In this document: one piece after another, positions 55,786 to 56,230 of the stretch
Numbering within the stretch: position 1 is the first letter of the stretch
Layout: every line of letters starts with the position of its first letter
Virus record (IMG/VR): IMGVR_UViG_3300025655_000024
Span: 16,180-80,179 of that record
DNA length: 64,000 nucleotides
From: a virus
Strand: one strand, 5' to 3'
Program-made: the position numbers and the translations under genes
Notes under the pieces: model-generated
Seen by the model: the letters and a program-made list of their open reading frames with translations, nothing else
Database searches by the model: none
What the model was told of the DNA's origin: nothing

Positions 55786-55989
55786 TCATTTATTTGGTTG
55801 CCGATGATGATAGCAATATCCATTATGGATAGCCTCTTTGCGACACGGCTCACCCGCCCTTGTCACGCCTTTACAACGGTCACTATCAAGGAATTCCTTT
55901 TTGACAACGACTTTTTCTTGTAGTGGTTGGGGTTTTAGAGGCTGTTCCACTTTCGGAGGTTGCCATTGACTCCTGTTCGCCTCAATACC
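55786..55989 (-). CDS. Zn-finger segment, probably a +1 frameshift extension of the upstream membrane protein
   Basis: CKGVTRAGEPC..GYCYHH. No in-frame ATG; reachable through TCC_TTT_CGG. Confidence 0.5.
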   Translation of the reverse strand, partial: GIEANRSQWQPPKVEQPLKPQPLQEKVVVKKEFLDSDRCKGVTRAGEPCRKEAIHNGYCYHHRQPNK

Positions 55990-56230
55990 GAAAGGAAGAA
56001 TACTGACGCACAGCCACCGTGAAAGTGAATAACATTCCAAAGAAAAAGCCCATGATTTGACTCGTGGACATTTCAGGGCCTTTCCACACCATAATCAAAA
56101 ATCCCACAAGAATAAATGAAATGATGAAGATCATGGTTGCACTTTCAACGAGCATTTTTTGCGGGCTTAACAGATTAACACCCGCACTCGCCCAATTGAT
56201 TTCAGCCTCTTTGTTTCGTTCTTCCGTCAT
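55982..56230 (-). CDS. Small two-TM membrane protein (holin-like topology)
   Basis: Two hydrophobic helices; GAGGTG SD. Confidence 0.7.
   Translation of the reverse strand: MTEERNKEAEINWASAGVNLLSPQKMLVESATMIFIISFILVGFLIMVWKGPEMSTSQIMGFFFGMLFTFTVAVRQYSSFRY

Follow-up and report, generated by a model that had tools for sequence, protein, structure and literature searches.

A candidate +1 ribosomal frameshift at UCC_UUU_CGG that may append a zinc finger to a small membrane protein in marine archaeal tailed viruses

The 64,000-nucleotide stretch of viral DNA analysed here (the window), which belongs to an 80-kb IMG/VR contig, contains a short gene for a two-helix membrane protein (ORF1) that ends within an open +1 frame encoding a zinc finger. 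From the comparison of this locus with its relatives, we consider it highly probable that a programmed ribosomal frameshift at UCC_UUU_CGG appends the zinc finger to some copies of the membrane protein. A +1 shift at this site had been proposed from the sequence alone, and the proposal survived each refutation test tried and is supported by our results. What the sequence-only reading overlooked is that the site is spread throughout a family of viral loci, and that a dozen relatives use the -1 frame at the same place.

The two-frame gene and its family

ORF1 occupies positions 55982-56230 of the minus strand and encodes an 82-aa protein, the short frame-0 product, which has two hydrophobic helices (hydrophobic stretches at residues 26-52 and 58-74) and ends in ..AVRQYSSFRY*. 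On the minus strand its 3' end reads TCT TCC TTT CGG TAT TGA. The candidate shift site UCC_UUU_CGG (55988-55996, minus strand) is in frame 0 and comprises the codons that would occupy the E, P and A sites of the ribosome, namely TCC (55996-55994), TTT (55993-55991) and CGG (55990-55988), which are followed by TAT and the stop codon TGA (55984-55982). The +1 frame is open from 56040, across the shift site, to a stop at 55788-55786, and both the coordinates and the letters that the sequence-only reading gave for this layout agree with ours. Beyond the site, the +1-frame extension or tail (55786-55989, minus strand) has 67 codons plus the stop and encodes a P/Q-rich linker followed by a zinc finger (GIEANRSQW...CKGVTRAGEPC...GYCYHH); the predicted long product (P0003) is 147 aa when TTTC is counted as a single step. 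Pfam assigns the finger (55801-55878, minus strand) to DUF5763 (PF19067), a CCCH finger with the spacing C-x9-C-x9-C-x2-H, with E=5e-10 and 39.1 bits against a curated cut-off of 26.3. A second DUF5763 gene in the window (1119-1352, plus strand; 77 aa, with its own ATG) reaches 30.5 bits against the same cut-off, which bears out the earlier claim that the two fingers are of one type. This gene is a paralogue of the finger and lies outside the frameshift unit; its start (1119-1122, plus strand) shares an ATGA overlap with the stop of the ORF at 559-1122, as in ordinary coupled starts. Another copy of CCTTTCGG in the window (11317-11324, minus strand) is out of frame, and the count of this motif equals the chance expectation.

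The virus is likely a marine, magrovirus-like archaeal tailed virus with an archaeal host, as suggested by its gene content. Along 99% of its length, the major capsid protein (33642-34814, minus strand) shares 31-32% identity with those of the haloarchaeal siphoviruses HVTV-1, HCTV-1 and HCTV-5; the matches are solely archaeal viruses, including a Methanofastidiosa virus, with no bacterial phage among them. The HVTV-1 capsid clade falls among marine archaeal viruses, including magroviruses (PMC8651126). The best PolB matches are haloarchaeal viruses, the upstream 16 kb encodes an RFC-like ATPase and an XPF/ERCC4-HhH2 nuclease, and the relatives of the locus stem from marine and estuarine metagenomes. 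We found no paper describing this gene or site: papers on magroviruses and Poseidoniales viruses mention neither a frameshift nor the ORF1 gene, and contigs of this family are not included in the supplements of the magrovirus paper. Searches of the GenBank phage collection gave no match for the region (blastn) or for ORF1 (tblastn), there was no Rfam match for the region either, and the window yielded no tRNA gene.

Relatives of the locus were collected in two sets. A pattern scan combined with ORF1 alignment yielded 53 viral loci from IMG/VR (41-98% identity), which together with the window make up a first set of 54 loci with 49 distinct ORF1 sequences; a scan of metagenome contigs yielded a second set of 70 more loci, 43 of them new, bringing the total to about 96 distinct viral and metagenome loci. 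An in-frame TTT_CGN stands one or two codons ahead of the ORF1 stop in every one of the 53 IMG/VR loci and likewise in each of the 69 metagenome loci that could be read to the end of ORF1 (the 69 include L129, in which the DNA downstream runs off the contig). The ORF1 homologues are 71-90 aa long and share the C-terminus A[VI]RQ[YF]A[SA]FR(Y)*. Gene order (g242-g331-g217-ORF1+tail-g236a-g147) is kept across the 53 viral loci, and this membrane/GTPase module sits just upstream of the head and packaging genes. Immediately upstream lies g217 (56241-56894, minus strand), a 217-aa Q/M/G-rich protein, and immediately downstream g236a (55056-55766, minus strand), a 236-aa Cys/His protein whose gene begins 17 nt past the extension stop; both are syntenic in 53 of 53 viral loci, and g242 is so in 50 of 53. 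The latter gene (57858-58586, minus strand), three genes upstream in the window, has a weak match to Gtr1/RagA GTPases that stays below the cut-off (E=8e-4).

In loci with enough DNA, one lineage excepted, a non-zero frame is open across the site and leads to a DUF5763-type finger over 58-162 codons. Across 84 distinct loci, some with as little as 41% identity in ORF1, the extension is an open frame of homologous sequence, and the Cys, Cys, Cys and His columns of the finger are invariant in 49 sequences. The longer extensions insert one or two EF-hand-like DxDxDG loops and a CxxC...CxxC ribbon before the finger; the loops of these relatives match Pfam EF-hand_1 (E=7e-8) as well as centrin and calmodulin in the PDB. 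A PDB sequence search with the extension profile returned EF-hand proteins only, matched through this middle module of the relatives, and nothing for the finger. The loops and the ribbon lie at about extension codons 20-70 (in L021, L041, L051 and others), and the window version has neither.

We considered whether the two frames could stem from a sequencing or assembly indel that split a single in-frame gene. The identical two-frame layout, with zero indels, is seen in three IMG/VR contigs that come from other samples and are almost the same in sequence, and the few substitutions in their tails are mostly silent in the +1 frame. Contigs from independent public runs (X13, from an estuary in 2024, and X16, a marine run of 2018) show substitutions at the locus and no gaps, and contig X19, from an RNA library, matches the site exactly; independent contigs and the RNA-library contig thus carry the same letters there. 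A few proteins in the database, P0019 and P0025, do read through into the extension, as a split gene would lead one to expect, but they shift frame earlier and elsewhere, with garbled sequence, in the manner of error-shifted calls. Moreover, the same two-frame layout recurs in about 96 distinct contigs, which were drawn from many samples and built by many assemblers. An indel is consequently next to impossible as an explanation, and for practical purposes it is already refuted. A profile search of 1.84 billion representatives returned no in-frame ORF1-finger fusion, and its full-length matches were proteins of 84-90 aa with the same end residue. X19 ends close to both borders of ORF1, although contig ends are uninformative about transcripts. 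Two further candidates were set aside. ORF1 ends with TAA, TAG or TGA in the relatives, and since all three stops terminate it, a recoded stop is not the answer; for transcriptional slippage, the T runs of 3-4 are too short.

Constraint at the site and in the extension

The codons of the site are far more constrained than the protein requires. Across the 49 distinct ORF1 sequences, synonymous variation is normal until two codons before the site and then collapses over exactly three codons. Phenylalanine at the site is encoded by TTT in 49 of 49 sequences, as compared to 171 TTT and 152 TTC elsewhere in ORF1. The arginine that follows is encoded by CGG (38), CGC (7) or CGA (4) and never by AGA, AGG or CGT, whereas these last three make up the majority of arginine codons in the loci; as a control, an invariant arginine five codons upstream employs all six codons. 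The codon preceding TTT is TCC (36), GCC (3), TCT (4) or GCT (6), and in every +1 locus the E-site codon is TCC (36) or GCC (3). CGG is the rarest arginine codon in these loci (4.6 per 1000), and TCC is the rarest serine codon. Taken over both sets, TTT is followed by C in 54 of 54 loci of the first and in 69 of 69 readable loci of the second. A check of motif conservation had been put forward with the initial proposal, and its outcome is that TTT_CG is kept well beyond amino-acid demand. At the protein level, residues 73-81 of ORF1 (55988-56014) are conserved as A[VI]RQ[YF]A[SA]FR while their codons vary freely. It is conceivable that the nascent peptide A[VI]RQ[YF]A[SA]FR plays a role in pausing.

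The base directly before TTT was found to go together with the frame of the extension. Loci with C at this position have a +1 tail and loci with T have a -1 tail, with no exception. The first set contains 44 C/+1 and 10 T/-1 loci (39 and 10 distinct sequences), and the second set, which was scored after the rule had been stated, added 33 C/+1 and 2 T/-1 loci with zero discordant; combined, the distinct loci with a complete tail number 72 C/+1 and 12 T/-1. The loci L010 and L011 have their finger in the +1 frame. The +1 and -1 tails are homologous from the junction onward and always terminate in the finger, as illustrated by L025, in which ..F-GNASLGMRRFNP aligns with ..F-SVASSGVRRFNP of L026, while at the DNA level the two differ by TCC -> TCT plus a spacer that is 2 nt shorter. 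L025/L026 and L021/L024 are both sister pairs of opposite frame. On a tree of the flanking proteins, which is a quick tree, the -1 state needs at least 4 changes. Recombination could also have spread the module, and the linkage between base and frame is unbroken either way.

The substitutions between relatives further indicate selection on the extension as a reading frame. Counted from tail codon 4 to the first Cys and including pairs of +1 versus -1 loci, changes at codon positions 1, 2 and 3 of the extension frame amount to 70, 52 and 203; the pairs overlap, and the sum is descriptive only. From this pattern and the conserved sequence, the extension frame is under purifying selection. The strong excess of third-position changes speaks against the idea that the extension is the unexpressed remnant of a decaying pseudogene, as do an open and homologous frame in 84 distinct loci, invariant metal ligands, and the domains (EF-hand loops, an extra zinc ribbon) that have been gained and not lost. 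Decay would fit a deletion in one lineage, L083/L084, and for the family as a whole we regard it as barely credible. In this lineage (L083:1411-1560, and L084 with the same sequence), GCC_TTT_CGC and ORF1 are kept and about 130 nt of the extension are gone, a stop closes the +1 frame 4 codons on, and ahead of g236a no more than the final few codons of the former tail can still be recognised. As the tail was deleted and the site kept, the long isoform would be dispensable at least there.

It was also of interest whether the extension could be translated from a start of its own. The earlier statement that the extension frame has no ATG is true for the window, although it left unmentioned a TTG at 56040, 17 codons upstream of the site, and an in-frame GTG (55948-55950, minus strand), 13 codons downstream of the site, which is the sole plausible alternative start in the clade of the window. 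No Shine-Dalgarno-like sequence precedes either codon. In the interval from the upstream stop to the finger, the tail frames of the relatives share no conserved ATG, GTG or TTG. L011 lacks all three there, and L020, L031 and L032 offer nothing but a TTG, placed 4 codons ahead of the site, that arises incidentally from the Gln-Phe codons of frame 0. In the tightest cases only 5-8 codons of open tail frame precede the site, which confines any change of frame to a stretch of about 7-10 codons containing the nonamer.

These observations bear on the alternative that the finger ORF is a separate small gene, started at the GTG (55950-55948) or TTG (56040) or by termination-reinitiation, and that TTT_CGN is kept for some other purpose. 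The operon is tightly packed, as coupled translation would have it; in several clades an ATG lies 4-8 codons inside the extension, and a stop/start overlap of the form ATGA is present in L047 and L048. Within the clade of the window, the GTG at +13 is kept in 5 of 6 members (the window, L006, L008, L067 and L072), which makes separate initiation harder to dismiss for the virus of the window alone. This GTG is, however, absent in L066 and in other clades, it has no Shine-Dalgarno-like sequence ahead of it, and no candidate start is common to all clades, with L011 lacking one altogether. A separate gene would in addition leave unexplained why synonymous variation is lost at TTT, CGN and NCC/NCT, why C changes to T before TTT exactly where the extension moves to the -1 frame, and why the open extension frame invariably reaches back past the site. 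We therefore consider a separate gene unlikely and retain a frameshift at the site as the preferred explanation.

Downstream RNA structure

We examined structure both within individual loci and in alignments. For 32 of 46 distinct sequences, the segment of 34 nt behind the A-site codon ranks among the most stable 5% of segments of its own locus, with stems that start at +9 to +11 from the first U of UUU. Most clades have a GC-rich hairpin, and the stem sequences vary among clades while complementarity is retained. Stems are strongest in the -1 loci, at -11 to -19 kcal/mol, and lie about one base nearer the site there. RNAalifold run on a MAFFT alignment of 30 junctions returned no structure, which is due to the variable loops having misaligned the stems.

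One subclade (L041, L045, L046, L049-L057 and L122-L128) has two tandem stems at +10 to +46 from the site, the second stem-loop being G[GA]G[GC]G-ATWTA-C[GC]C[CT]Y. Here, 165 of 165 cells are paired and 5 of 11 pairs have double changes; the covariation score was reached by 0 of 500 shuffles, and slid controls were only 38-76% paired. These values come from a narrow alignment and from a structure set by hand and derived from the same sequences, in a region that is also protein-coding. In the tail, changes from Pro to Ser and from Gly to Arg seem to be tolerated to preserve the pairing of the stem.

For the window itself, the 60 nt downstream fold no better than shuffles (z=0.14). A possible weak long-range stem, GAGGC...GCCTC (55938-55983, minus strand), starts at +11 from the first U of UUU; its pentamers are common to the window, L066, L067 and L072, and they are invariant with no covariation, leaving the stem without statistical support in this clade.

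Proposed mechanism and known frameshift systems

In the mechanism that we propose, most ribosomes would terminate at the ORF1 stop and yield the 82-aa two-helix membrane protein. A fraction would stall while the P site holds peptidyl-tRNA-Phe paired to UUU and the rare CGG waits in the A site, upon which tRNA-Phe could re-pair one base forward, from UUU to UUC, and translation in the +1 frame would give the 147-aa isoform. This long isoform would consist of the shared anchor, a flexible linker and the C-terminal DUF5763 CCCH finger; in the AlphaFold model, the finger reaches a pLDDT of about 87, against about 52 in the linker. The predicted signal is NCC_UUU_CGN, probably with stimulation, in most of the related clades, from a hairpin that begins 9-11 nt from the first U. 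In the -1 relatives, which have NCU_UUU_CGN and a spacer that is 2 nt shorter, the same tRNA would slip back onto U_UU. The identity of the preceding base is consistent with this scheme: on C_UUU_C, tRNA-Phe could step ahead to UUC, but a step back would meet a mismatch in CUU, whereas U_UUU_C makes a backward move onto UUU possible. We infer the shifting of ribosomes, as well as the part played by the hairpin, from this arrangement.

The outcome of such a shift would be a fixed ratio of bare membrane protein to copies with a cytoplasmic metal-binding tail. The tail may bind nucleic acid, and a membrane-held nucleic-acid-binding tail is a reasonable guess. Pfam shows a weak resemblance of the finger to the Mcm10/primase finger, and in a Foldseek search of the finger against the PDB the best rows were the finger of the Mcm10 internal domain with a non-significant E of about 1, to be taken as a lead only. 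The suggestion that the two isoforms form an effector/regulator pair is speculation.

The type of site is already known; what is new is the domain of the host, the gene family, the coupling to a hairpin, and the natural inversion to -1. In human PLEKHM2, +1 shifting at UCC_UUU_CGG has been proven by experiment (bioRxiv 10.1101/2024.08.30.610563), and the UCC codon contributes to the influenza cassette (PMC5009743). The nonamer of the window equals the PLEKHM2 site letter for letter and differs by one base from that of influenza PA-X (UCC_UUU_CGU). As proposed for these two systems, the step would be that of tRNA-Phe from UUU to UUC with a slowly decoded CGN in the A site, and it would likewise join a new C-terminal domain to a shared N-terminal part. 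Unlike PA-X and PLEKHM2, however, the host is presumed to be an archaeon and not a vertebrate, the site lies one or two codons before the frame-0 stop, which leaves the short form without a tail of its own, and some relatives go -1 at the same place. Moreover, a strong 3' hairpin follows the site in most relatives, and no such structure is required by PA-X or PLEKHM2.

Comparable events have been described in prokaryotes. In bacteria, UUU_Ynn is prone to +1 shifting, for instance in Yersinia YopN-TyeA (PMC5009743), where, as predicted here, slippage of a single tRNA-Phe from UUU to UUY fuses adjacent frames in prokaryotic-type translation; the present case differs in the gene family, the deep conservation, the defined E-site codon, the rare A-site codon and the covarying hairpin. 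Tail-chaperone shifts are so far the only frameshifts predicted in archaeal tailed viruses, being -1 in HVTV-1 and HCTV and +1 in HSTV-2 (PMC8211752; PMC5009743). Like the G/GT tail chaperones, the family described here is conserved across divergent tailed viruses, would make two proteins at a set ratio, one short and one with a C-terminal extension, and has a lineage-dependent direction. Unlike them, it concerns a membrane-protein gene upstream of the packaging genes, not one between tail tube and tape measure, and it relies on a P-site UUU with a hungry codon and not on an X_XXY_YYZ heptamer. Recoding has scarcely been recorded in archaea, and the sole experimentally shown archaeal frameshift is the -1 shift in fucA1 of Saccharolobus solfataricus (PMC8211752). 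It shares with our site the combination of a slippery site, rare codons and a putative stem-loop, but fucA1 is a cellular gene with an A_AAA_AAT heptamer that shifts in the -1 direction only and is not conserved across a family.

ORF1 had initially been called holin-like, a label that did not find support: no family was found for it in Pfam or PHROG, the protein atlas gave only unnamed clusters scoring <0.9, and no endolysin was recognised nearby. The scanned neighbours contain no lysin domain and most are without any match, with archaeal lysis enzymes being poorly known. The small size of ORF1, its TM helices and its charged C-terminus RQYSSFRY are compatible with a holin but generic and non-diagnostic. 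The S105/S107 holin-antiholin of phage lambda consists of two membrane-protein isoforms that are made from one gene via dual start codons. ORF1 resembles this system in being a small phage membrane protein with two predicted isoforms from one gene, and differs in that these would arise by a C-terminal frameshift and not from N-terminal dual starts; neither homology nor an endolysin partner nor any sign of lysis was found. The holins reported in PMC11706807 belong to a different virus order.

Taking the family as a whole, we lean towards the broader reading that a lineage of marine archaeal tailed viruses carries a conserved slippage switch with UUU in the P site, a hungry CGG and a hairpin at about +10, the direction of which would have flipped at least 4 times, on every occasion via a C-to-U change in the codon before UUU plus a 2-nt change in the spacer. 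It would represent the first conserved archaeal-virus frameshift outside the tail chaperone, and a domain that binds Ca/Zn and possibly DNA would be held at the host membrane by the long isoform. If this is true, the family offers natural paired mutants for what sets the direction of frameshifting on archaeal ribosomes, and the +1/-1 sister pairs (L025/L026 and L021/L024) can show the effect of the 5' base and of hairpin distance. Deep conservation of the influenza A/PLEKHM2 nonamer in abundant uncultured marine archaeal viruses also suggests that a minimal +1 signal works on archaeal ribosomes. Furthermore, gene callers miss or mis-start the extension in every such genome, and the EF-hand/zinc-finger membrane protein is absent from annotations. 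Such mishandling in annotation is seen in P0019 and P0025, which are ORF1-tail fusions via frame changes at other positions and probably reflect read errors.
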